In this document: positions 2,860 to 45,735 of the stretch, one piece after another
Numbering within the stretch: the stretch's first letter is position 1
Layout of the letters: every line of letters begins with the position of its first letter
Source of the DNA: an uncultured Gammaproteobacteria bacterium
GTDB taxonomy: Bacteria > Patescibacteriota > Patescibacteriia > Magasanikbacterales > GWA2-37-8
DNA length: 64,000 nt
Reading direction: 5' to 3'
Assembly: GCA_964535515.1 (NCBI GenBank)
Contig: CAZHTA010000005.1
Location: 13 to 64,012 of the forward strand
Notes under the pieces: generated by a model
The model's input: only the letters and a program-made list of their open reading frames with translations
What the model was told of the DNA's origin: nothing
Databases searched by the model: none
Position numbers and translations under genes: made by a program

Positions 2860-2888
2860 TTGACAGAAGTGAGTTTTTTTAGTATAGT
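2860..2888 (+). promoter_or_regulatory. sigma70-like promoter TTGACA-17-TATAGT driving GC-rich ORF
   Basis: ttgaca(2860-2865) 17-nt spacer tatagt(2883-2888); AAGGAGG RBS at 2950-2956 before ATG 2961. Confidence 0.55.
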
Positions 2889-2960
2889 GAGCTGTTCTAC
2901 CCGTGGGGATGGGTGGACATCACGCGACTGGAGTATATCCAGCGCTAGCAAGGAGGAGGC

Positions 2961-3896
2961 ATGAAACTCAGAGAGATTCTGGTGGTCGAAGGGCTTACCA
3001 GGAACATGGGCGAACTTCTCTCGTCGGTGGTCGAGGCCGTGTCGGCTATCGGCTACCTCGAGGGCATGCGGCTGGTCATCGAAGAGTACAAGCCGGCTGC
3101 TGCCAAGCGCCAGCCGCTGGATGGCGTAAACGTGTCGGAAGAGTCGGTCAGGGCCTTTCGCGCCTTTTCGGGTGCTATGACCGCGCTTGCCGAGGGATGC
3201 CACATTCCCGTGGTGCAGGCCCTGTACCTGCACGATGCGGCGAGTGGACTCAGCCGGGGCAACGGCAACCTGCCCGACCAGCAGGTTGAGCTGAATCGGC
3301 ACGCTCTGCTCGTTCTCGGTGGTGTCTCTAGCGTTCTGCGTGGGGACGACTGGTGGTGCGTCTACGAGAAAGTGATGGTCGGCCTCATGGAGGCCGGGCA
3401 CGTCGCTTTCAATGAAGACGTCTTCCGGTCGATCATCGAGTCCATGAAGAAGAACCACGCCAAGGATGCGGCTGGTCGCCAGGCTCATCTGGCCGAGCGG
3501 CTCGCCGAGCAGGATCGCCTAGACGAGGCGATCGAAGTGCTCGCGTCGGTGGAGGGCGACACGTACTCCGCTCCGAACCAGCGTGGGTATGCGCTCGGGC
3601 TCCTGGAGAGGTACAGAGCCGTCGCCGTTACTCGGCGTGGTACGGGCACCTCGCGTGAGCGTCGCGCTCCGTCTCGTCGCAAGAAGGGCAGCGGTGCGAC
3701 CAAGGAAGGCGATCCCGAGCCACCACCAATAATCCGTCATCGCGCTTGGTACGGCACGATTGGCGGTACGTTCATTAGTACTAGGAGGGATAACGTCGTG
3801 GTCCCCACCCACGACTTACTCCAAAAGAGCATCAAATTATTGGTGCTTTTTTGTTTGTTTTTTTTATTTAAAAATGGTATATTATTCCTACTATGA
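2961..3896 (+). CDS. hypothetical protein encoded in GC-rich foreign-like cassette; 3' end appears truncated and reads through into AT-rich backbone/terminator
   Basis: High GC3 codon bias in this frame, canonical SD+ATG; C-terminal 25 aa (LLQKSIKLLVLFCLFFLFKNGILFLL) are translated from AT-rich terminator/promoter sequence. Confidence 0.5.
   Translation: MKLREILVVEGLTRNMGELLSSVVEAVSAIGYLEGMRLVIEEYKPAAAKRQPLDGVNVSEESVRAFRAFSGAMTALAEGCHIPVVQALYLHDAASGLSRGNGNLPDQQVELNRHALLVLGGVSSVLRGDDWWCVYEKVMVGLMEAGHVAFNEDVFRSIIESMKKNHAKDAAGRQAHLAERLAEQDRLDEAIEVLASVEGDTYSAPNQRGYALGLLERYRAVAVTRRGTGTSRERRAPSRRKKGSGATKEGDPEPPPIIRHRAWYGTIGGTFISTRRDNVVVPTHDLLQKSIKLLVLFCLFFLFKNGILFLL
3826..3852 (+). terminator. Rho-independent terminator downstream of GC-rich cassette
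   Basis: agagcatcaa-attat-tggtgct hairpin (one G-U) followed by T-run. Confidence 0.6.
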
Positions 3897-7494: not shown

Positions 7495-7504
7495 TTATGG
7501 ATTG

Positions 7505-7533
7505 TGCCGAGGGTGATTTTGTGGTATGATAAA
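7505..7533 (+). promoter_or_regulatory. sigma70-like promoter TTGTGC-17-TATGAT
   Basis: ttgtgc cgagggtgattttgtgg tatgat upstream of AbrB-like gene. Confidence 0.5.
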
Positions 7534-7553
7534 TATGATTAATCATATTTATA
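7534..7553. promoter_or_regulatory. perfect 20-bp palindrome AAATATGATTAATCATATTT (candidate operator)
   Basis: 10+10 inverted repeat with no spacer located between -10 element and start codon of AbrB/MazE-like gene. Confidence 0.55.
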
Positions 7554-7559
7554 CGTATT

Positions 7560-7787
7560 ATGGCTAAAACAAAAGAAAAAAAGATAGATTGTGGCTTTGG
7601 AACAATCTGTGGAACAACTACCGTGGGTGAACGTGGACAGGTAGTTATTCCTAAGGAAGCGCGAGAAAGATTGAAATTTAAGACGGGGGATCGTTTTTTG
7701 GTTATTGAACATTATGGGAAGATTGTTTTAATACCAGAAAAGGAAATGCGTACTATGATTGAACAAATTACTAAACATTTAAAATGA
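7560..7787 (+). CDS. AbrB/MazE/SpoVT-type swapped-hairpin DNA-binding protein
   Basis: GQVVIPKEARERLKFKTGD matches AbrB-N/SpoVT domain consensus; 75 aa. Confidence 0.6.
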   Translation: MAKTKEKKIDCGFGTICGTTTVGERGQVVIPKEARERLKFKTGDRFLVIEHYGKIVLIPEKEMRTMIEQITKHLK

Positions 7788-7796
7788 TATTAATAT

Positions 7797-9533
7797 ATGA
7801 ACTTAAGTTTTTTACGTACTAAAAAATTCTACCTGATTTTGGGTGGAGTAATTATTGTCGGTTTAATCGGTTGGAATTCTTATCGTAAAGCCAATATGCC
7901 GGTGGAATACGAAACGGTTAAAGTTGAGCGTGGTAATTTGGTACAAACTGTTGAAGTGACTGGTAAGATTGAATCAGTAACCGACCTATCATTACGATTT
8001 GAAATACCAGGTACAGTTGATGCGATAAAGGTAACAGAAAATACTCAAGTAAAAGCAGGTGATTGGTTGGCTAACTTACGTTTAGCAGAATTAAATGCAG
8101 CAGTGGCTCAAGCTAGTGCTAATTTGAATCAAAAGTTGGCAGGTCCGTCGACTGAGGATCGAAGTTACTACAAAGCAGCAGTTGATTCAGCTCGTTCTTC
8201 TTTAGAGCAAACACGTATAGACGCACAGTCTACTATTACTGCCGCGGAAGCTGTTTTAGAGACGGCAAAGAATAATTTAAAATTTGCTGAAGGAGGAGAG
8301 AATAGTCAGATTGTAAACAATGCCTATGACTCCGCCGTAGCGACCTTACAAACAGCTTTGGGCACAATCGATAGTGGTCTTACACAGGCTGATAATATTT
8401 TGGGAGTTGATAGTACTTTGGCTAACGATAGTTTTGAGTCGTATTTGTCAATTCTAGATAGTTCTAAGTTGTCATTTGCTAAAACAAACTATCTCATTGC
8501 CAAATCAGCGCGTGATCAAGTTAGACCTTTAATACTTGCTTTAACTACTGGTAATGATCGAGCAAAAGTTGATAGTGCATTGCCGTTGGCTGAGACAGCG
8601 CTTTCAAAAAATATTACTTTGTTGTCATCGGTTGGTGAGGTATTAACTGCTACTCCGCCAGTTGGTACTTTAACCCAAGCTGTGTTAGATGGACACAAAA
8701 CAACAATTGATGCCGCTCGTACTGCCGCTACCACTCAATATACCAGTGTGATTGTTAGGCGTCAGGCAGTGGCGGATTCAAAAAATAGCTATTCCACATA
8801 TTTGGTAGCATACAATAAAGCAGAAAAAGATTTGTTAAGCGCACAAGATAACGCTAATAATCTGATTGCTTTAAAACAGGCAGTATATGATCAAGCAGTT
8901 GCTAGTTTTGATAGCAAAGTTAATCCACCTCGTGAAATTGATGTGGCTGCTTACCGTGCCATTCTCGCATCGGCGGTGGCTAATCGCGACAAAGCGATTA
9001 TTCGCGCTCCGATTGATGGGTTGGTGACTAAAGTTAACAAGAAAAAAGGTGAATATATTTCTGGTGCGGAAACAATGATTCAATTGTTGTCACCGCATTA
9101 TGAAATTAAAGTGGACATTCCAGAAACTGATATTCCAAAGTTAAAATTGAATGATGCCGCTAAAATTACTTTAGATGCTTTTGGTAAAGATGTTAAATTT
9201 TCTGGGAAAATTGTAAATATTGAACCAGCTTCAACTGAAATTCAGGATGTTGTATATTACAAAGTCACCATTACATTAGACGATACTGAACAGGCGATTA
9301 AACCAGGTATGACAGCAAATGTTACGATTACTACTGCGACACGTGAGAATGTTTTGTTCATCCCGTATCGTACCGTTAAAATTAACGGAGAAAAAACTGT
9401 CCGAGTATTAGAAAACAATCAACCTAAGGATACAGTGGTTAGTATTGGTTTGCGCGCTGATGAAGGGAAGGCCGAAGTGTTGTCCGGTTTAAATGAAGGG
9501 CAAGTTGTTGTGGTGAGTGTAAAAACAAAGTAA
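7797..9533 (+). CDS. HlyD-family periplasmic adaptor (membrane fusion protein) with long coiled coil
   Basis: N-terminal TM, biotinyl-lipoyl-like half domains, Ala/Gln-rich coiled coil, C-terminal beta-barrel; followed by MacB-like ABC genes. Confidence 0.7.
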   Translation: MNLSFLRTKKFYLILGGVIIVGLIGWNSYRKANMPVEYETVKVERGNLVQTVEVTGKIESVTDLSLRFEIPGTVDAIKVTENTQVKAGDWLANLRLAELNAAVAQASANLNQKLAGPSTEDRSYYKAAVDSARSSLEQTRIDAQSTITAAEAVLETAKNNLKFAEGGENSQIVNNAYDSAVATLQTALGTIDSGLTQADNILGVDSTLANDSFESYLSILDSSKLSFAKTNYLIAKSARDQVRPLILALTTGNDRAKVDSALPLAETALSKNITLLSSVGEVLTATPPVGTLTQAVLDGHKTTIDAARTAATTQYTSVIVRRQAVADSKNSYSTYLVAYNKAEKDLLSAQDNANNLIALKQAVYDQAVASFDSKVNPPREIDVAAYRAILASAVANRDKAIIRAPIDGLVTKVNKKKGEYISGAETMIQLLSPHYEIKVDIPETDIPKLKLNDAAKITLDAFGKDVKFSGKIVNIEPASTEIQDVVYYKVTITLDDTEQAIKPGMTANVTITTATRENVLFIPYRTVKINGEKTVRVLENNQPKDTVVSIGLRADEGKAEVLSGLNEGQVVVVSVKTK

Positions 9534-9865
9534 TACTAAAAAGTAAATTAAAAAAACAAAAAATCCCTTTGGTTAAGGAATTGTATGATGAATGGGCACC
9601 AGGAGGAGAAGTGGTGCCAGTGTTCGGACCGCGTCCGATTAATGAGCTAGGCCGGTTTTTCGCCCGCGCGCTAGACACTCAAACACTGACACCACGACTC
9701 CTCTGGTGGTGAGAGAAGAGACTGTGTGTGTAGAAGGGCTTTCCTTCAGGGGGATAACGTATGCGACCGTCATCCACTACTACACGCAGATCTTCCTTCT
9801 CTCAAGCGGGAGCATCTCGACGCGGTTTGGGCATGGGCCGTCTGCGCGTAGGAAGATCTCCCGAG

Positions 9866-9913
9866 TCTGGGAACATGGGGATTTGAACCCCATGAATTCG
9901 TCGATGTTCCCAG
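9866..9913 (-). ncRNA. tRNA-like minihelix (8-bp acceptor stem + 12-nt linker + T-arm GGGGUUCAAAUCCCC, no D or anticodon arm)
   Basis: Minus strand CUGGGAAC-AUCGACGAAUUC-AUGGGGUUCAAAUCCCCAU-GUUCCCAG-A folds as acceptor/T-arm coaxial stack. Confidence 0.3.
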
Positions 9914-9925
9914 GAAAGAATAAGG

Positions 9926-9999
9926 AGCGGGAGACTGGAATTGAACCAGTGGCCTCCACCCTAGCAGGATGGCACTCTGTTTCTCTGAGCTACTCCCGC
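9926..9999 (-). tRNA. atypical tRNA-like gene (anticodon GCU, short variable arm, D-loop lacking GG) - possibly pseudo-tRNA or non-canonical tRNA
   Basis: Manual fold: acceptor GCGGGAG/CUCCCGC, anticodon stem CCAUC/GGUGG loop CUGCUAG, T-arm ACUGG-UUCAAUU-CCAGU; D-loop AGAGAAACA unusual. Confidence 0.45.
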
Positions 10000-10071
10000 G
10001 AAAGTAGTTAAATACTATCAAATATATTAAAAATGTAAAGATTGTGTTGTGGATAAGTAAAATCAATTATT

Positions 10072-10794
10072 ATGCCTTTAATTAAAGTTGAAAATTTAAC
10101 CAAACAATACGAAAACGAAGATGTGATAACACCAGTGTTGCATGGTGTGAGTTTTGAAATTCAAAAAGGGGAGTTTGTGGCCATTATGGGCCCGTCTGGT
10201 TCAGGCAAGTCAACACTAATGCATATCTTGGGTTTTTTGGACAAGCTTAGTGCTGGTAAGTATTTGTTTGATGGAAGGGACGTTAGTGGTTTAAGTGATG
10301 ACCAATTAGCAGAAATGCGCAGTGAGTCCGTGGGTTTTATTTTTCAGGCGTTTAATCTTTTGCCACGTACAACTGTTTTAGAAAATGTAATGTTACCGTT
10401 GGTCTATACCAAGTTGACTCCAGCAGCGCAAAAGTTAAAAGCAAAGCAGGCAATTGTATCAGTTGGTCTAGAACATCGTTTAGAATATTATACTAATCAA
10501 TTATCTGGTGGCGAAAAACAAAGAGTAGCCATTGCGCGTGCTTTAGTTAATAATCCGGCAGTAATTTTTGCTGATGAACCAACTGGCAACTTGGATTCTA
10601 AATCAGGTTTGCAGGTAATGAAAATTTTGCAAGATTTAAATGAGCAGGGTCATACAATTATATTAGTTACGCACGAACGTTATACCGCTGACCATGCTAA
10701 GCGTATTATCCGGGTACGTGACGGCGAAATTGAAGAGGACTCATTGGTGGCTGTTCGTCAAATTGCTGCCACTAACGGTGAGCTTAAAAAGTAG
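10072..10794 (+). CDS. ABC transporter ATP-binding protein (MacB/LolD-like)
   Basis: Walker A GPSGSGKST, signature LSGGEKQRVAIARAL, Walker B, H-loop; 240 aa. Confidence 0.85.
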   Translation: MPLIKVENLTKQYENEDVITPVLHGVSFEIQKGEFVAIMGPSGSGKSTLMHILGFLDKLSAGKYLFDGRDVSGLSDDQLAEMRSESVGFIFQAFNLLPRTTVLENVMLPLVYTKLTPAAQKLKAKQAIVSVGLEHRLEYYTNQLSGGEKQRVAIARALVNNPAVIFADEPTGNLDSKSGLQVMKILQDLNEQGHTIILVTHERYTADHAKRIIRVRDGEIEEDSLVAVRQIAATNGELKK

Positions 10795-19013: not shown

Positions 19014-19069
19014 AAAACCACCTCCCTTAAGCGACAATGTCTTATCATTTAAGGGAGTCGGGTGGTTTT
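19014..19069 (-). terminator. hairpin terminator downstream of GC-rich cassette 2
   Basis: aaaaccacctcccttaa ... ttaagggag-tcg-ggtggtttt imperfect inverted repeat followed (minus strand) by A/T run. Confidence 0.45.
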
Positions 19070-19156
19070 GAGAATCACGCCCGACATAAGGCAGGTGTGA
19101 TTGTTGGGAAAGGGCAATGGCCTTGGGTTGGGTAGGGCGGAGTAGCCGTCGTGGGT

Positions 19157-19582
19157 CTAGTCGTCCAGCGTGCCCGGTCTGTCGAGCGGAGCGTAGAGAC
19201 CCAGTATGGAGCACTTGAAATCGGGGTCGTCGGGCGGGTTTTGCCCGAAAGCGCTGCGCATCTCGCGCTCTGGGCTCTGGCCGAATGCTCCGGGCCAGTA
19301 CTCGGCCGGAACGCTCAGAGCGCCTTCACGGAAGAAAAGGCGCACGTGACCTTTCATGTCTTCGGATAGGTTGTCCCACGCCGCCTGGTCCGTATCCGCG
19401 AGGGCGGATTCTTCCAGGAGGTGCTCGAGCAGAACCGGAGGCGTCTGCTTTTGCCTTTCTGCCCACTCACGCGCTCGTGCCTTGCTAAAGAACGGGGTGG
19501 TGTAGATATGGTCGCCGTTGAAGAAGCGTCCGTGAGTCGGCAGCACTCCGCATTTGCAGAGTCTGAACGTAATGTCTGCCAT
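19157..19582 (-). CDS. hypothetical protein in GC-rich foreign-like cassette 2
   Basis: 141 aa, strong GC3 bias in this frame, AAGGAGG RBS 6 nt upstream of ATG, no recognisable domain. Confidence 0.5.
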   Translation of the reverse strand: MADITFRLCKCGVLPTHGRFFNGDHIYTTPFFSKARAREWAERQKQTPPVLLEHLLEESALADTDQAAWDNLSEDMKGHVRLFFREGALSVPAEYWPGAFGQSPEREMRSAFGQNPPDDPDFKCSILGLYAPLDRPGTLDD

Positions 19583-19750
19583 CGGTTCCTCCTTACTTAC
19601 CCAGTTGGTTGTCGCCTGTTATAGAGCCTAACACAGGGTGGTATTTTGTTCAAGATGCTTAGTGTTTATGTCTTGTTTTGCGATTTGTAGTTTTTTAATA
19701 TAGGGAGTACAATATATGACAATTAATTATTGCTGTTATTTTAAATAACA

Positions 19751-23432: not shown

Positions 23433-23502
23433 AAAAAATTGTCCAATCTCCTTGATTTAATTCCAAATTATTTTAGAAGTAAATCATGGTGGACAATTTT
23501 TT
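23433..23502. repeat. palindromic element A: 13-bp terminal inverted repeats AAAAAATTGTCCA/TGGACAATTTTTT flanking 44-nt core containing CTCCTTGATTTAATTC
   Basis: Perfect 13-bp inverted repeat; homologous in architecture and core motif to element at 24074-24144. Confidence 0.6.
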
Positions 23503-23601
23503 GTATTCCTCCTATCATCCCTCCCGTTTTCCCGGGAGGATCAGGTGTGTGTTCGGGTGTGGGGTGGATTGCGACAGAATCGTCGCTCTTGGGGGGGGTA
23601 G

Positions 23602-23970
23602 CTAAGGCTTGGCGGCGTTGACCTCGGCGTTGACCTCCTGCATCCACTGCCCGATGACGGTGAGGGTGACGCCGGTCGAGGTGAGCTTGTTGATCACCAC
23701 CGACATTCCGAAGAGCACGATCGTTTCGGGAGCGAAGCCCTCAGCGTCGCCGTTGGCCCGGGAGTGGTCGAGAACCTCCCGGTAGGTGCCCTTGAAGAGG
23801 TCCTCTTCCGACTGGGACGGCACCCGCAGGTTGCCCACCTCCGTGGGCAAGATGTTGCCGCACTTCGTGCACATGACGACGTATCCGTTTCCGGATTCGC
23901 CGCGCATGACCTTGTGCAGGTGGTTGCACACGCACTCTGGACACCACGCGCTACGCATGAAGAGATACAT
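23602..23970 (-). CDS. zinc-ribbon protein in GC-rich foreign-like cassette 3
   Basis: 122 aa, N-terminal CPEC...CTKC zinc-ribbon, high GC3, promoter-like TTGACA with flanking direct repeats upstream. Confidence 0.5.
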   Translation of the reverse strand: MYLFMRSAWCPECVCNHLHKVMRGESGNGYVVMCTKCGNILPTEVGNLRVPSQSEEDLFKGTYREVLDHSRANGDAEGFAPETIVLFGMSVVINKLTSTGVTLTVIGQWMQEVNAEVNAAKP

Positions 23971-24015
23971 GGTGGGGCATCCCCCGATTTGTTGGTCCGT
24001 AATTTTTTAATCACT

Positions 24016-24042
24016 ATTACAGGAGATTGTCAATATTACAGG
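24016..24042. promoter_or_regulatory. direct repeats TATTACAGG x2 bracketing a minus-strand TTGACA -35 hexamer (candidate operator of zinc-ribbon gene)
   Basis: tattacagg agattgtcaa tattacagg on plus strand; reverse complement gives cctgtaata-TTGACA-atctcctgtaata. Confidence 0.4.
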
Positions 24043-24144: not shown

Positions 24145-24527
24145 GATGTTCGCGCCGATCCGTGCCTGGGAGTCCGTGCTCCCAGGACTTATTCAATGCT
24201 GCCTATTCGGCAACAACTGGGGGTGGAAGATGGGCGATCTCGTCCATCATATCCAGGTAGATGTGAAGAAGCAGTGACTTCTCCGGCGGACGGGGGCTTT
24301 CGATGCCTCGAATCTTGTCCAAGAACTCCAACTTCGTCATCCTTGTTTCCGACGCGGTTGTTTAATTAAATAGTACACCTTTAAGAGTCGATTGACAATA
24401 ATAAAGTTCGAACCCCTCCCGCCCTCAACCAAAATCACCCACACCGCTTGGAATTGGCAAACTTATTTCGGCTCTAATATCAGCAGAAAACAAAAGAACC
24501 TCGAACATGATTCGAGATTCCATCTTG

Positions 24528-24600
<73 letters not shown>

Positions 24601-28846: not shown

Positions 28847-28917
28847 GCGGGATTAGTACATTGGTAGTATACGTCCTTCCCAAGGATGAGAGGCCAGTTC
28901 GATTCTGGTATCCCGCT
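28847..28917 (+). tRNA. tRNA-Gly (anticodon CCC)
   Basis: Manual fold: acceptor GCGGGAU/AUCCCGC, anticodon stem CGUCC/GGAUG loop UUCCCAA, T-loop UUCGAUU. Confidence 0.75.
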
Positions 28918-28935
28918 CAATTTAGTAAACAAAAA

Positions 28936-28975: not shown

Positions 28976-29132
28976 AAACCGTCTTCGTCAAAAGACAAAA
29001 ATCTTCTGACGGAGCGGGCGGTCTTGCGACAGCCTCAACTCCGTTGGGGGAGTTGTGACTTTGGAAAGAACAACCGGGTAGGAGGGGGGGGTGGACTGGG
29101 AGGCAACTCTATTTGACCGCTACGGCCTCGAT

Positions 29133-29483
29133 CTAGACGATCAGCGTGGTGCCGACGGAGCGGGGGTCGCGGATTTTCCGCACCCTACCTTCCTTGCTGG
29201 TGGCGACGAAGGTGTACGGGCTGGTCCAGGTCCAGACGACCTGGAAGAGGCTCCCTGTCGGCGCCTGTTGGGCGAAGCACATGATGCCGCTGTCCTTACC
29301 GTCGGTCCTGGGGACCAACAGGTCGCCGTCGCGAACGAGCCGGATGTAGGTCTTGAGCTGCGGTCCCGACTCCGGCGAGCTGGGCTTCCGGCTCGTGCGG
29401 AAGAAGGTCACGTCGGGCGGCAGCTTGAACAGGGCGCCCTTTTGGAACGGGAACGACGAGGTCGGGGTCGGTTGGTCGGACAT
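29133..29483 (-). CDS. hypothetical protein in GC-rich foreign-like cassette 4
   Basis: 116 aa, high GC3, GGAGGA RBS 5 nt upstream of ATG, minus-strand TTGACA-17-TAATAT promoter at about 29548-29576. Confidence 0.5.
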   Translation of the reverse strand: MSDQPTPTSSFPFQKGALFKLPPDVTFFRTSRKPSSPESGPQLKTYIRLVRDGDLLVPRTDGKDSGIMCFAQQAPTGSLFQVVWTWTSPYTFVATSKEGRVRKIRDPRSVGTTLIV

Positions 29484-29524
29484 GGTAATCCTCCAGAGAT
29501 GCTTGCTCTCACACCAACTGCGGT

Positions 29525-29806
29525 ATGAGTGTTGGTGAGGATATTAATGCTTTTTTTACAATTTGTCAATATTTCCCATTGCGGTTAATGTATTTTTTTG
29601 ATAAAATATTAATGCTTATGAAGACAAAAATAAATCAGAAGCAACAAGAAGAACTACAAAAACTAGAGAAGTGGTTTGATTTGGAGTTAATAAAATTAAA
29701 GAAAAAGCGAATCGAGATTTTAAAGCGTTATGATAAAAAAAGGTCATTGTTGTTTCAGAATAAAATATTAAAACATATTAGTGGTATAAAGACAGAAACA
29801 TATTAA
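29525..29806 (+). CDS. small Lys/Glu-rich coiled-coil protein (true start probably internal Met near 29614)
   Basis: ORF track 93 aa; first third overlaps minus-strand promoter of cassette 4, so a downstream start is more plausible. Confidence 0.4.
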   Translation: MSVGEDINAFFTICQYFPLRLMYFFDKILMLMKTKINQKQQEELQKLEKWFDLELIKLKKKRIEILKRYDKKRSLLFQNKILKHISGIKTETY

Positions 29807-41397: not shown

Positions 41398-41468
41398 GCC
41401 CTCTTTGTTCAGTGGTAGAACAGTGGTATCGTAAACCACAAACATCAGTTCGATTCTGATAGAGGGCT
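41398..41468 (+). tRNA. tRNA-Thr (anticodon CGU)
   Basis: Manual fold: acceptor GCCCUCU/AGAGGGC, D-arm GUUC-AGUGGUA-GAAC, anticodon loop AUCGUAA, T-arm AUCAG-UUCGAUU-CUGAU. Confidence 0.8.
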
Positions 41469-41582
41469 CATTTAAAATTTCGCTTAATAGCGGAGTTTTT
41501 TATTTTCCACAAACCCTTGCTTTTTTTGTTGTTTATGATAGGGTTATTAAAGAAATTTGGGAATATATTTCCCTTAATTTGC

Positions 41583-41602: not shown

Positions 41603-41689
41603 GTTGACCGATATTTGACAATTCATTACGGAAACGGAAGAGGGAGTTAGTGCTAGTGCTGGAGCGAAAACTGTTTGGGGGAGGAATAG

Positions 41690-42943
41690 ATGTTGATTCC
41701 ACGCGAACGCATGCTCGAAAGGTTCATGCGCTACGTGCGCATGGACACCCAGTCGGTTGAGGGAGCGGAGTGCTACCCCTCGACCGAGAAGCAGAAGACC
41801 TTGCTGCGGCTGTTGGTCGACGAACTGAAGGCGCTGGGCCTCGCCGATGCGGCCATGGACGAGTGGGGCTACGTCTTCGCGACGTTGCCGTCGAACTTGC
41901 CGGCCGACCAGGCCGCCAAGTTGCCGGCCATCGGTTTCTTGGCGCACGTCGACACGTCGCCGGAAACGAGCGGCACGGACGTGAAGCCGGTGATCTGGAG
42001 GCACTACGATGCGGGCACCAACCTCGTGTTGCCCGGCGACCATTCCCAGGTGATCACCTGGGACGGTAACCCCGTGCTGCAGCGATACGTCGGGCAGGAC
42101 ATCATCACCAGCGACGGCACCACCCTGCTGAGCGCGGATGATAAGGCGGGCATCGCCGAAATCATGACCGCCATCGAGGTGCTGTTGGCGAATCCTGACA
42201 TCCCGCGCCCCACCATCCGTGTGGCGTTCACGCCCGACGAAGAGGTCGGTATGGGTACTGCCCATTTCGATCTCGCGAAGTTCGGCGTGCAGGCCGCCTA
42301 TACCCTCGACGGCGGCGAAATCGGTGAGGTTGAATGCGAGACATTCAACGCTTACCTCGCGACCTTCACGGTCGTCGGCAACAACTGCCACCCCGGCTAC
42401 GCCAAGGGGAAGATGGTCAACGCCATTCGTCCCATGGCAGCTATCGTCGAGGCCTTGTCCGACCAGCCTGCACCCGAGACCACCGAGGGTCGCCAGGCTT
42501 ACCTGCACCCGTACGATCTCAAGGGTGAAGTTGCCAAGGCTACGCTCAAGGTGCTCATCCGCAGCTTCGATGAAGCAGGTATCGAGTCGCGCAAGATGTT
42601 CCTCGCGGGCGTGCGCGATCGCGTAGCGGCGGCGTTCCCTCAGGCGAACATCGTTCTCGAGATGGTCGAGCAGTACAAGAACATGAAGGTCTACGTGGAT
42701 CAGGATCCGCGTGTCATGGCCTTCGCCACGGAAGCCATCATCAAGGCTGGTCTCCAGCCGATCACACGCGAGATCCGCGGCGGTACGGATGGCTCGAAGT
42801 TGTCCGAGAAAGGACTGCCTTGCCCCAACCTGTTCGCGGGTGGGCACAACTTCCACTCGAAGTTGGAGTTCATCCCGGTGCAGTCTATGGAGAAGGCCGT
42901 GGAGGTCGTGGTCTACCTGGTCGAGCGCTGGGCCAACGCCTGA
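41690..42943 (+). CDS. pepT: peptidase T (tripeptide aminopeptidase, M20B family) in GC-rich foreign-like cassette 5
   Basis: Strong collinear similarity to E. coli PepT recalled from memory (HVDTSP, GADDKAGIAEIM, AFTPDEEVG, IRGGTDG, GLPCPNLF, GGHNFH); high GC3; GGGGGAGG RBS. Confidence 0.8.
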   Translation: MLIPRERMLERFMRYVRMDTQSVEGAECYPSTEKQKTLLRLLVDELKALGLADAAMDEWGYVFATLPSNLPADQAAKLPAIGFLAHVDTSPETSGTDVKPVIWRHYDAGTNLVLPGDHSQVITWDGNPVLQRYVGQDIITSDGTTLLSADDKAGIAEIMTAIEVLLANPDIPRPTIRVAFTPDEEVGMGTAHFDLAKFGVQAAYTLDGGEIGEVECETFNAYLATFTVVGNNCHPGYAKGKMVNAIRPMAAIVEALSDQPAPETTEGRQAYLHPYDLKGEVAKATLKVLIRSFDEAGIESRKMFLAGVRDRVAAAFPQANIVLEMVEQYKNMKVYVDQDPRVMAFATEAIIKAGLQPITREIRGGTDGSKLSEKGLPCPNLFAGGHNFHSKLEFIPVQSMEKAVEVVVYLVERWANA

Positions 42944-43198
42944 TCATCCCGTCTCAGCCGTTTCTGGCTAAACACTTACCACATTGGAGGGAAATGGTGT
43001 GGCACAGTGCGATTCATTCGCCAAGCTATTCCCCTCTAAATGAAGATTTTGATTTAAGTCTTTATTTAGAGGATAGTTTGGAAATATTAATAAGACCATT
43101 TGTATAAATTACGAGTGGTTTTTTATTTATACACATCCTTTGGTTTGGTAGGTTTTCTACTTCTCCTTTTTTGTGATATAATTTAAATACTATCGCTT

Positions 43199-44810: not shown

Positions 44811-44881
44811 TCGGGGATCGTCTAATGGCAGGACAGCGCCCTTTGAAGGCGCTTATCTTGGTTCGAATCCAAGTCCCCGAA
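44811..44881 (+). tRNA. tRNA-Gln (anticodon UUG)
   Basis: Manual fold: acceptor UCGGGGA/UCCCCGA, short D-stem, anticodon stem GCGCC/GGCGC loop CUUUGAA, T-arm CUUGG-UUCGAAU-CCAAG. Confidence 0.7.
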
Positions 44882-44883
44882 CT

Positions 44884-45144: not shown

Positions 45145-45331
45145 TAGCTTAACCAAGCTGTTATTTTTTTATACCTGAATGGGATATTGTGATTATTACA
45201 GTCTCTGTTTAAACAAAAAATCACTTTATAATAAGTGGTTTGATGTTTGTTTAAATGAATCTGTGTGGAACCGGCGCGCCTATCCACACAGAGGCGGAAG
45301 AAGTGCGCCGGGTCCTAGGCCTTGTACGTCG

Positions 45332-45586
45332 TCACGCGGTCTTCTGCTCGGGGTAGTACCCCGTGTCGAACATCGCGTCGATGATGTCCGCCGGCACCAC
45401 GTCCTCCATGCGGATGAACGGTCCCGGCGGTGGGAGGTAGATTCCTCGCTTCCTCTCGAATCCAACAGCCAGGAGGAGGCTGCGGAATTCGTCGCATGCG
45501 GGCACGGGCACCGCCATGTCGTTGACATCGACTGCGATTGCGCCGATAGGATCGTTCGGTTCGAAGAGGTTCGTGGCGTCGTCCAT
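45332..45586 (-). CDS. hypothetical small acidic protein in GC-rich foreign-like cassette 6
   Basis: 84 aa from MDDATNLFEP; high GC3; TGGAGG RBS 6 nt upstream; hairpin ctgtgtgga...ccacacag just after stop. Confidence 0.45.
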   Translation of the reverse strand: MDDATNLFEPNDPIGAIAVDVNDMAVPVPACDEFRSLLLAVGFERKRGIYLPPPGPFIRMEDVVPADIIDAMFDTGYYPEQKTA

Positions 45587-45735
45587 GACACCCTCCAAAA
45601 AAGTTACTAATAGTAGACTGTCATATTTTATCAACAAAGTCAATATTTAGTCTAATAATTTTATTGTTTTCCATGGTGTGGAATGGTGTAAGTAAGGTTG
45701 CTTTAAACCTTGTTTTTTGTTAAAATATTAATACT

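Follow-up and report, generated by a model that had tools for sequence, protein, structure and literature searches.

The MALAT1 transcript carries a tRNA-like module, mascRNA, that is cut by RNase P and RNase Z. The T4 species 1 and 2 RNAs, GOLLD, and ROOL are structured RNAs of unknown function that are linked to transfer RNA (tRNA) genes and co-processed with them; those of T4 are small, stable, and transcribed together with the phage tRNA cluster, whereas GOLLD and ROOL are large. The staphylococcal cell-wall tRNA-Gly species are reported to be missing G18G19. In plant mitochondria, t-elements are tRNA-like modules that act as RNase P/Z processing signals (PMC1920247), and in phages, morons are independent transcription units inserted between adjacent genes (PMC3594210). 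Here, we compare these systems with a non-coding spacer of 538 nucleotides (nt; positions 9534-10071) within a 64,000-nt stretch of contig CAZHTA010000005.1, referred to as the window, whose host belongs to Candidatus Magasanikbacteria of the candidate phyla radiation (CPR). The spacer lies between an open reading frame (ORF) of the HlyD family and an ABC ATPase ORF, and contains an atypical tRNA-like gene, a tRNA minihelix, and a strongly folded body on the minus strand. Our reading, which is tentative and to which we give somewhat less than an even chance, is that lateral transfer brought in the segment as a self-contained, RNA-only cassette, in which the tRNA-like modules serve as handles for processing by RNase P/Z.

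Anatomy of the tRNA-like modules and the folded body

On the minus strand, ARAGORN calls a tRNA-Ser(gct) at 9924-9999, and the Rfam tRNA model (RF00005) matches 9926-9999 with 56.8 bits, above its gathering score of 29. Both programs agree with the initial annotation, which had described a 74-nt tRNA-like gene at 9926-9999 with the anticodon GCU, a short variable arm, and a D-loop without GG. All 21 stem pairs are intact, the variable region measures 5 nt, and CCA is not encoded. The acceptor stem GCGGGAG/CUCCCGC with discriminator U73 is of the Gly type and is 6/7 identical to that of the host tRNA-Gly(CCC). The D-loop reads AGAGAAACA and is without G18G19, which the alignment shows to be present in six of six host tRNAs. 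Furthermore, C32:G38 and U33:A37 are pairable, and the predicted fold has a 7-bp anticodon stem closed by a 3-nt loop. In a functional decoder, G18G19 form the elbow with the T-loop, and the anticodon loop has 7 nt without a Watson-Crick 32:38 pair; the tRNA-like gene has neither G18G19 nor an open 7-nt anticodon loop. Regarding identity, tRNA-Ser is defined by a long variable arm and G73, and tRNA-Gly by C35, C36, and U73. The 5-nt variable region and U73 are not Ser-like, and U36 is not fully Gly-like, so that no coherent identity emerges. Because G18G19 are missing, C32 can pair with G38, and a Gly-type acceptor is combined with a Ser anticodon, the module is probably not a decoder, and such a role appears unlikely from its sequence. 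With its Gly-type acceptor stem, U73, and missing G18G19, it resembles non-proteinogenic or degenerate tRNA-Gly. Unlike the cell-wall tRNA-Gly species, it has the anticodon GCU instead of UCC or GCC, and its T-loop is canonical; the likeness is one of features only.

The 12-nt spacer CCUUAUUCUUUC (9914-9925, minus strand, by direct reading) separates the tRNA-like gene from the tRNA minihelix (9866-9913, minus strand), which consists of an acceptor stem and a T-arm and was recognized as an inverted repeat, by its fold, and by a sub-threshold Rfam match. The minihelix had been annotated at this position and is present, but at a distance of 12 nt instead of 13. Its geometry is the canonical 7+5 bp, with the acceptor GGGAACA/UGUUCCC, the T-stem UGGGG/CCCCA, the T-loop UUCAAAU, and discriminator A. 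One more leader-trailer pair extends the 7-bp acceptor to an 8-bp stem, the linker has 12 nt, and a D arm and an anticodon arm are absent, with all stem pairs intact. A perfect 10-nt inverted repeat CTGGGAACAT/ATGTTCCCAG surrounds GGGGUUCAAAUCCCC, and the fold reaches -21.4 kcal/mol (z = -3.3). The T-loop motif GGTTCRANTCC occurs four times in the window, compared to 0.11 expected occurrences. Compared to the Rfam family mascRNA-menRNA (RF01684), the minihelix scores 22.3 bits (E = 0.052), below the gathering score of 42.5, so that this is a structural analogy and not a family assignment. The minihelix is not a copy of the 3' end of the tRNA-like gene, as the T-loop alone is common to both and the minihelix carries both acceptor strands. 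A diverged copy of the tRNA-like gene in either the minihelix or the adjacent hairpin domain D1 was likewise rejected, since the alignment scores were no higher than those of shuffled controls.

Downstream of the minihelix, three hairpin domains follow on the minus strand. D1 (57 nt, 9807-9863) was defined by folds and inverted repeat I3, and its closing helix CGGGAG.../...CUCCCG repeats the acceptor sequence of the tRNA-like gene. An 8-nt direct repeat, CUCCCGCU, comprising the acceptor 3' strand and the discriminator, is found at 9933-9926 and again at 9812-9805, 121 nt apart. The 3' strand of D1, GAGAUGCUCCCGC (9818-9806), can alternatively pair with the 5' end of the tRNA-like gene (9999-9987) at 12 of 13 positions, which this duplication favours. 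D2 (95 nt, 9710-9804) is a branched domain closed by GAGAGAAG/CUUCUCUC, with inverted repeats I2 and I5 and a fold of -35.5 kcal/mol (z = -3.9). D3 (112 nt, 9597-9708) forms a rod of ~24 bp with a forked tip, contains inverted repeat I1, and folds at -62.7 kcal/mol (z = -7.0). Together, the hairpins noted earlier for this region form a segment (9585-9865) with a folding energy of -128.6 kcal/mol and, on the minus strand, z-values of -7.4 to -7.8. Equal-length pieces of six other GC-rich cassettes of the window, described below, give z-values of +0.6 to -3.7 despite a higher guanine-cytosine (GC) content, which makes the foldability of the spacer exceptional. Both strands of the 9-bp long-range pairing proposed initially are present, i.e., AGAUCUUCC (9859-9851, in D1) and GGAAGAUCU (9796-9788, in D2), but the minimum free energy (MFE) fold prefers competing local helices, leaving the pairing as a pseudoknot-type alternative. 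Two short motifs pointed out at the same time, GGAAAGCCC (9744-9736) and AAAAACCGGCCUAG (9660-9647), are found in the sequence.

The 3' arm of D3 has an alternative hairpin, GGCACCA-CUUCUCCUCC-UGGUGCC (9618-9595), in which an anti-Shine-Dalgarno-like CUCCUCC loop is exposed; in the MFE fold, this loop is sequestered in the D3 rod. With this 3' hairpin and the terminator-like hairpin that follows, the arrangement is similar to that of the alpha-r14/CcsR ("cuckoo") small RNAs with CCUCCUCCC loops. Unlike these, the spacer has a single such loop, sequestered in D3, and its scores of 20.8 bits against ar14 (E = 0.12) and 12.9 bits against CcsR1 are far below the gathering thresholds of 58.8 and 65.3, respectively.

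Putative signals of a transcription unit bracket the modules and the body. A promoter-like site of the sigma-70 type (10012-10039, minus strand) was found by a consensus scan, comprising TTTACA, a 16-nt spacer, TAGTAT, and a TG before the -10 element; 12 nt lie between it and the tRNA-like gene downstream, and it is a consensus match only. At the far end, the fold reveals a weak terminator-like element (9545-9582, minus strand), i.e., an 8-bp AU-rich hairpin AAUUCCUU-AACCA-AAGGGAUU followed by UUUUGUUUUUUU, which ends ~12 nt from the HlyD stop codon. That a promoter-like site immediately precedes the tRNA-like gene and a hairpin with U-run closes the opposite end supports the reading as a self-contained cassette.

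The spacer was rejected as protein-coding: its ORFs (98-101 amino acids, aa) have no Pfam match, no credible start, and no codon-position GC periodicity, unlike those of the coding cassettes. The view of an unusually structured non-coding segment that joins an atypical tRNA-like gene to a tRNA-derived minihelix is supported. Comparison of the 101-aa plus-strand ORF to 1.84 billion representative proteins revealed 12 weak matches, ten of which lie wholly over the antisense of the tRNA/minihelix part. Another (P0137) covers 26 residues just upstream of that part, and the last (P0126), a repetitive protein of 1604 aa, aligns to residues 4-36 in 14 stretches with 28 % identity, which we treated as noise.

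We also searched for relatives on the nucleotide level. No homologue was found by blastn in phage or plasmid records or among ~90 related CPR loci, and none in viral contigs by five exact-pattern scans. The 21-mer of the tRNA T-arm and acceptor had no occurrence in 185,579 species-representative genomes, a collection without the source genome. A scan of JGI metagenomes for two T-loops 53-73 nt apart returned 62 loci, none of them homologous by blastn; one (L018) has a similar-looking minihelix after a tRNA-Ala, with an unrelated downstream region. Ribozymes, riboswitches, 6S RNA, Y RNA, GOLLD, ROOL, and group I/II introns had no Rfam match at the gathering threshold in the window. In a low-stringency Rfam scan (9450-10100, both strands, 4227 families, E <= 10), the same models gave no match in the spacer region. 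The cassette is an orphan for now, with no known family other than tRNA. Like the T4 species 1 and 2 RNAs, GOLLD, and ROOL, the body is structured and lies physically beside a tRNA-like gene; it matches neither GOLLD nor ROOL nor any other such family in Rfam and has no phage context, and the predicted RNA is much smaller than GOLLD or ROOL.

Insertion into a conserved transporter locus and other GC-rich cassettes

The spacer is preceded by the gene of an HlyD-family membrane-fusion protein (578 aa, 7797-9533, plus strand) and followed by a MacB-type ABC ATPase gene (10072-10794, plus strand) and two FtsX-type permease genes. It is the ABC ATPase that places the host in Candidatus Magasanikbacteria, and NCBI has an identical protein on record. 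Five related lineages share the gene order T2SSE, CCA-adding enzyme, HlyD, ABC ATPase, FtsX, FtsX, DnaG, and sigma-70. In L001, L004, L006, L009, and L010 (ABC proteins 83-87 % identical), only 2-15 nt separate the HlyD stop from the ABC start, and blastn homology with L001, the closest long relative, stops at 9534 and restarts at 10078. Across 45 related loci, the HlyD-to-ABC gap has a median of 13 nt and is <=46 nt in 38, and the few larger gaps contain unrelated inserts. The 538-nt spacer is an insertion between transporter genes of the core chromosome. As it is absent from relatives, it cannot be a conserved housekeeping RNA, though an accessory RNA may still be encoded. The initial annotation had named a foreign origin like that of the GC-rich cassettes, or the lack of both an Rfam hit and a transcript, as arguments against its own candidate, and the segment is indeed an insertion absent from relatives.

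The raised GC content of the non-coding spacer, which had drawn attention to the region, is present: GC amounts to 0.55-0.57 in 9600-9999, compared to ~0.31-0.44 in flanking 200-nt windows and ~0.38 in the whole window. From the HlyD stop to the ABC ATPase start (9534-10071), the inserted sequence comprises the GC-rich core (~9555-10010) with an AT-rich flank on either side. An imperfect 23-nt direct repeat brackets the core, with the left copy AATACTAAAAAGTAAATTAAAAA at 9532-9554 (plus strand) and the right copy, 83 % identical, at 10011-10033 (plus strand), where it overlaps the -10 element and part of the spacer of the minus-strand promoter-like site. AAGTAA recurs around the core as well (9528-9533 and 10055-10060). 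The 23-nt repeat is suggestive only, having a chance probability of ~0.1 by rough estimate in this AT-rich context.

An integration scar, one of the identities proposed initially, finds no support. As stated, the minihelix has only the T-loop in common with the tRNA-like gene, and no recombinase is found among the neighbours T2SSE, CCA-adding enzyme, HlyD, ABC ATPase, FtsX, and DnaG. The last 14-24 nt of the tRNA-like gene are not repeated within 3 kb downstream, where the 8-mer CUCCCGCU alone recurs, and no duplications of the attachment-site (att) type were found after host tRNAs.

The HlyD-to-ABC junction is a recurrent insertion site. Unrelated inserts fill it in L110 (3136-3639), L090 (9411-10000), L106 (9755-10000), and L077 (9712-10000). 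The L110 insert has 504 nt with tandem motifs and a long inverted repeat, and those of L090 and L106 hold small ORFs, in L106 between AT-rich inverted repeats. A further variable stretch was noted one gene upstream: window positions 7498-7764, between the CCA-adding enzyme and HlyD genes, are AT-rich (~270 nt) with a small ORF (7560-7787, 75 aa). This stretch is absent in L001, and L009 has a MazE-type antitoxin gene at the same position.

The window holds seven GC-rich segments including the spacer, all of them intergenic. None of the seven overlaps a host gene, and host genes cover ~90 % of the remaining sequence; random placement off the host coding sequence would have a probability of ~1e-7. 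That all seven lie between host genes speaks for real insertions filtered by selection, and not for assembly chimeras. The six others (2880-3838, 19039-19639, 23485-24016, 28990-29554, 41635-43038, and 45231-45612; GC 0.56-0.61) each comprise a single gene with an AT-rich flank carrying a TTGACA-type promoter-like site, a strong AAGGAGG-type Shine-Dalgarno sequence, and a hairpin with a T-run. Their ORFs, with a GC content at third codon positions of 0.7-0.9, are all protein-coding. One of them is the gene of a complete peptidase T (PepT, 41690-42943; NCBIfam, 516 bits), and the products of the remaining five are orphan proteins of 84-311 aa. The spacer at 9534-10071 is the only one of the seven without a credible ORF. 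In PHROGs, one of seven cassette ORFs tested was strongly matched, namely the PepT peptidase. No sequence is shared among the seven cassettes or their proteins, and no viral relative of the cassette-1 protein was found. The ORFs of c1, c3, c4, and c7 are on record from one NCBI contig that also carries the HlyD protein of the window.

Cassettes of the same kind, with promoter-like site, Shine-Dalgarno sequence, small ORF, and terminator, are present in related CPR metagenome-assembled genomes (MAGs) from other projects, i.e., in L073 (3100-3530), L082 (7770-8120 and 5180-5560), and L096 (6470-7090), so that they characterize the lineage and are not specific to a single assembly. Regarding their position, four of the six coding cassettes (c4-c7) lie ~70-510 nt from a host tRNA gene (24527-24600, 28847-28918, 41398-41469, and 44811-44882), for which a rough chance estimate is <0.001; no att-like repeat of these tRNA 3' ends was found downstream. 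Spacers bearing tRNA genes seem to be preferred landing sites of the cassettes.

Compared to morons, the segment at 9534-10071 has the same general layout: its own promoter-like site, cargo, and a terminator-like end, all as predicted signals, placed between genes that are adjacent in relatives and with a deviating GC content (0.55-0.57 vs. 0.38). Unlike morons, it resides in a conserved block of the core chromosome (T2SSE, CCA-adding enzyme, DnaG, and sigma-70) and not in a prophage, and its cargo is RNA only.

A proposed processing model and its alternatives

For the RNA-only cassette, we infer transcription, processing, and any function as follows. The cassette would have been inserted into the 2-15 nt spacer of an exporter operon of the HlyD/MacB-type ABC family, on the opposite strand. 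Its AT-rich promoter would drive a minus-strand transcript of ~450 nt, convergent with the host operon, which would stop at the weak hairpin and U-run beside the HlyD stop codon. The tRNA-like module and the minihelix, with the 7-bp acceptor, 5-bp T-stem, and T-loop geometry recognized by RNase P, RNase Z, and the CCA-adding enzyme, would serve as processing handles, and their cleavage would release an RNA of ~270 nt with three very stable hairpin domains and set its 5' end. One alternative fold of this RNA would expose the anti-Shine-Dalgarno-like CUCCUCC loop. Side effects on the host operon are plausible, among which there could be antisense pairing with read-through mRNA as well as RNase III cleavage of the resulting duplex or of the D3 rod.

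Described systems offer a precedent for this model. As in t-elements and the mammalian tRNA-like modules of MALAT1 (mascRNA) and MEN-beta, tRNA-like or minihelix structures with acceptor and T-arm and otherwise incomplete arms lie inside a longer sequence, here a predicted transcript. In these systems, the neighbouring RNAs receive their ends through cuts by RNase P and RNase Z, which we propose for the cassette by analogy. Unlike t-elements and mascRNA, the element of the window is bacterial, its modules are located 5' of the non-coding body, and there is no sequence relationship.

Several observations weigh against the model. As no homologue was found, conservation and covariation lend it no support. 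The other GC-rich cassettes are protein-coding, and the GC excess alone is therefore no argument for RNA structure. In the full-length MFE fold, the long-range helix 9999-9987/9818-9806 is taken, breaking the cloverleaf. Of the 97 predicted pairs in D1-D3, 94 are Watson-Crick and three are G.U, and the plus strand of 9585-9865 folds almost as well as the minus strand (z = -5.5). Given these near-pure Watson-Crick pairs and the folding of the plus strand, the helices could be young inverted repeats on the DNA level and not selected RNA. The strand assignment is based mostly on the tRNA-like modules, the promoter-like site, and the U-run, and for the latter, the terminator scan made no call at 9545-9582, as the stem has two G-C pairs only.

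Nearly as likely as the RNA-only cassette is an inert foreign remnant, i.e., a fragment of a GC-richer donor that could have entered, for example, via natural competence and illegitimate recombination. It would consist of a decaying tRNA-Gly-derived gene, the minihelix as a tRNA with an internal deletion, and palindromic sequence without coding function, all tolerated and functionless. The absence of the insertion from all relatives examined and of homologues from every collection searched is in line with this explanation, and the unrelated inserts of L110, L090, L106, and L077 at the same junction indicate that the site tolerates junk. A18A19 in place of GG, and U36 in place of the C36 of a GCC anticodon, can be explained as G-to-A and C-to-T changes, as would be expected in an AT-rich host, and the almost purely Watson-Crick stems suggest youth. 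However, no stem pair is broken in either the tRNA-like gene (21 pairs) or the minihelix, so that the supposed decay would have hit functional loop positions only. Moreover, the other foreign GC-rich segments fold far less well, and the unit is flanked by a well-placed promoter-like site on one side and a hairpin with U-run on the other.

A more specific form of the RNA-only cassette, which we regard as unlikely, makes it the first RNA-cargo version seen of the lineage's GC-rich moron-like units, mobile and extending from promoter to terminator. A non-decoding tRNA mimic and the minihelix would attract RNase P, RNase Z, and the CCA-adding enzyme, which would mature and stabilize a structured 270-nt effector RNA. 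This effector might be an anti-Shine-Dalgarno sponge or an antisense brake on the convergent HlyD/MacB operon.

It is also quite improbable that the segment acts on the DNA level, as a small non-autonomous mobile or recombination element similar to miniature inverted-repeat transposable elements or attC sites, whose hairpins matter in single-stranded DNA. The 94 Watson-Crick pairs among 97, the good folding of both strands, several inverted repeats of 9-22 nt, and the imperfect 23-nt direct repeats and AAGTAA repeats around the core would fit such an element. Yet it exists as a single copy, with no second one in the 64-kb window, in ~150 fetched loci, or in the public collections searched. By direct reading, the insert ends have no terminal inverted repeats, no transposase or integrase gene is nearby, and the flanking repeat is, by our own estimate, near chance level for AT-rich sequence.

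A functional tRNA that decodes and is followed by a long structured 3' trailer, either charged by glycyl-tRNA synthetase (GlyRS) and reading AGC/AGU or an unusual type-I tRNA-Ser, is very unlikely. The score of 56.8 bits is within the range of host tRNAs in Rfam (56-68 bits), the gene has its own promoter-like site, and G1:C72, C2:G71, G3:C70, U73, and C35, which make up the Gly identity set, are present. Nonetheless, G18G19 are missing, unlike in every host tRNA, and C32:G38 and U33:A37 can close the anticodon loop to 3 nt. U36 removes a GlyRS determinant, and neither a long variable arm nor G73 is available for the seryl-tRNA synthetase. Glycine inserted at AGY codons would be mutagenic, and the absence of the gene from relatives marks it as dispensable.

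We consider it equally remote that reads of a GC-rich organism were misjoined into an assembly chimera. The sharp compositional contrast and the origin of the sequence from a MAG might suggest this, but the seven segments avoid the ~90 % host coding sequence as described, the AT-rich promoter- and terminator-like flanks of each segment are also absent from relatives, and like cassettes occur in independent MAGs.

A reduced RNase P RNA or a tmRNA-like RNA (transfer-messenger RNA, one-piece or permuted), as suggested in the initial annotation, can practically be dismissed. GGAAAGCCC and AAAAACCGGCC faintly recall the P4 strands of RNase P, and the minihelix linker has, by direct reading, a UCGACG like the tmRNA 5' region, but no RNase P, tmRNA, or tmRNA_permuted family matched in the low-stringency Rfam scan, and ARAGORN found no tmRNA by default. 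At a threshold of 70 %, ARAGORN proposes a permuted tmRNA whose tag is not credible, as it lies antisense inside the HlyD gene, and both the tRNA-like gene and the minihelix have G3:C70 and not the G3:U70 of tmRNA alanylation. RNase P RNA is encoded by an essential, conserved single-copy gene, whereas none of the relatives examined has the segment at this locus; for an essential RNA, such an absence is impossible.

If the RNA-only cassette is real and processed as proposed, bacteria would mature an unrelated non-coding RNA with tRNA-like handles, as plant mitochondria and mammalian nuclei do, and accessory cassettes exchanged among the ultra-small CPR bacteria could carry RNA instead of protein cargo. 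Should the segment prove inert, the result remains useful: a false candidate for RNase P/tmRNA is removed, and the case warns that high GC in the AT-rich genome of this lineage is by itself no sign of structured RNA. Taken together, the GC-rich cassettes of this CPR lineage deserve at least as much attention as the single member at 9534-10071. Many GC-rich single-unit cassettes, intergenic and often beside tRNA genes, in genomes thought to be streamlined are perhaps the more useful lead, and their pattern bears on how CPR episymbionts acquire foreign DNA.

Shortened tRNA-like pieces in metagenome contigs

The JGI scan also brought up arrangements that are unrelated in sequence to the element of the window. 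In several metagenome loci (L016, L031/L061/L063, L035/L052, L044, L045, L056, L065, L018, and L050), a tRNA or a tRNA 3' end is followed after ~10-30 nt by a shortened tRNA-like hairpin with a full acceptor stem and T-arm and a linker of ~10-33 nt. In several unrelated contigs (L012, L017, L051, L067, L022/L028, L026/L057, L036/L037, L020, L029, and L068), a tRNA-Glu is followed by a partial tRNA-like piece that starts with GGCGGGCAGGTCA or GGCAGGCGGGTCA and ends with a T-arm and the acceptor 3' strand, with an encoded CCA in some loci (e.g., L012 and L022). Candidates for this piece are a split or half tRNA and an att repeat. The groundwater contig L018 (4976-5340) carries a tRNA-Ala(UGC), a minihelix with G3:U70, and a terminator-like hairpin, and then further elements; the region gives weak echoes of the tmRNA clan in Rfam. 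A second copy of AAATCCCCTC(T/C)GGTCCAC is located ~190 nt downstream, together with another T-arm-like hairpin.

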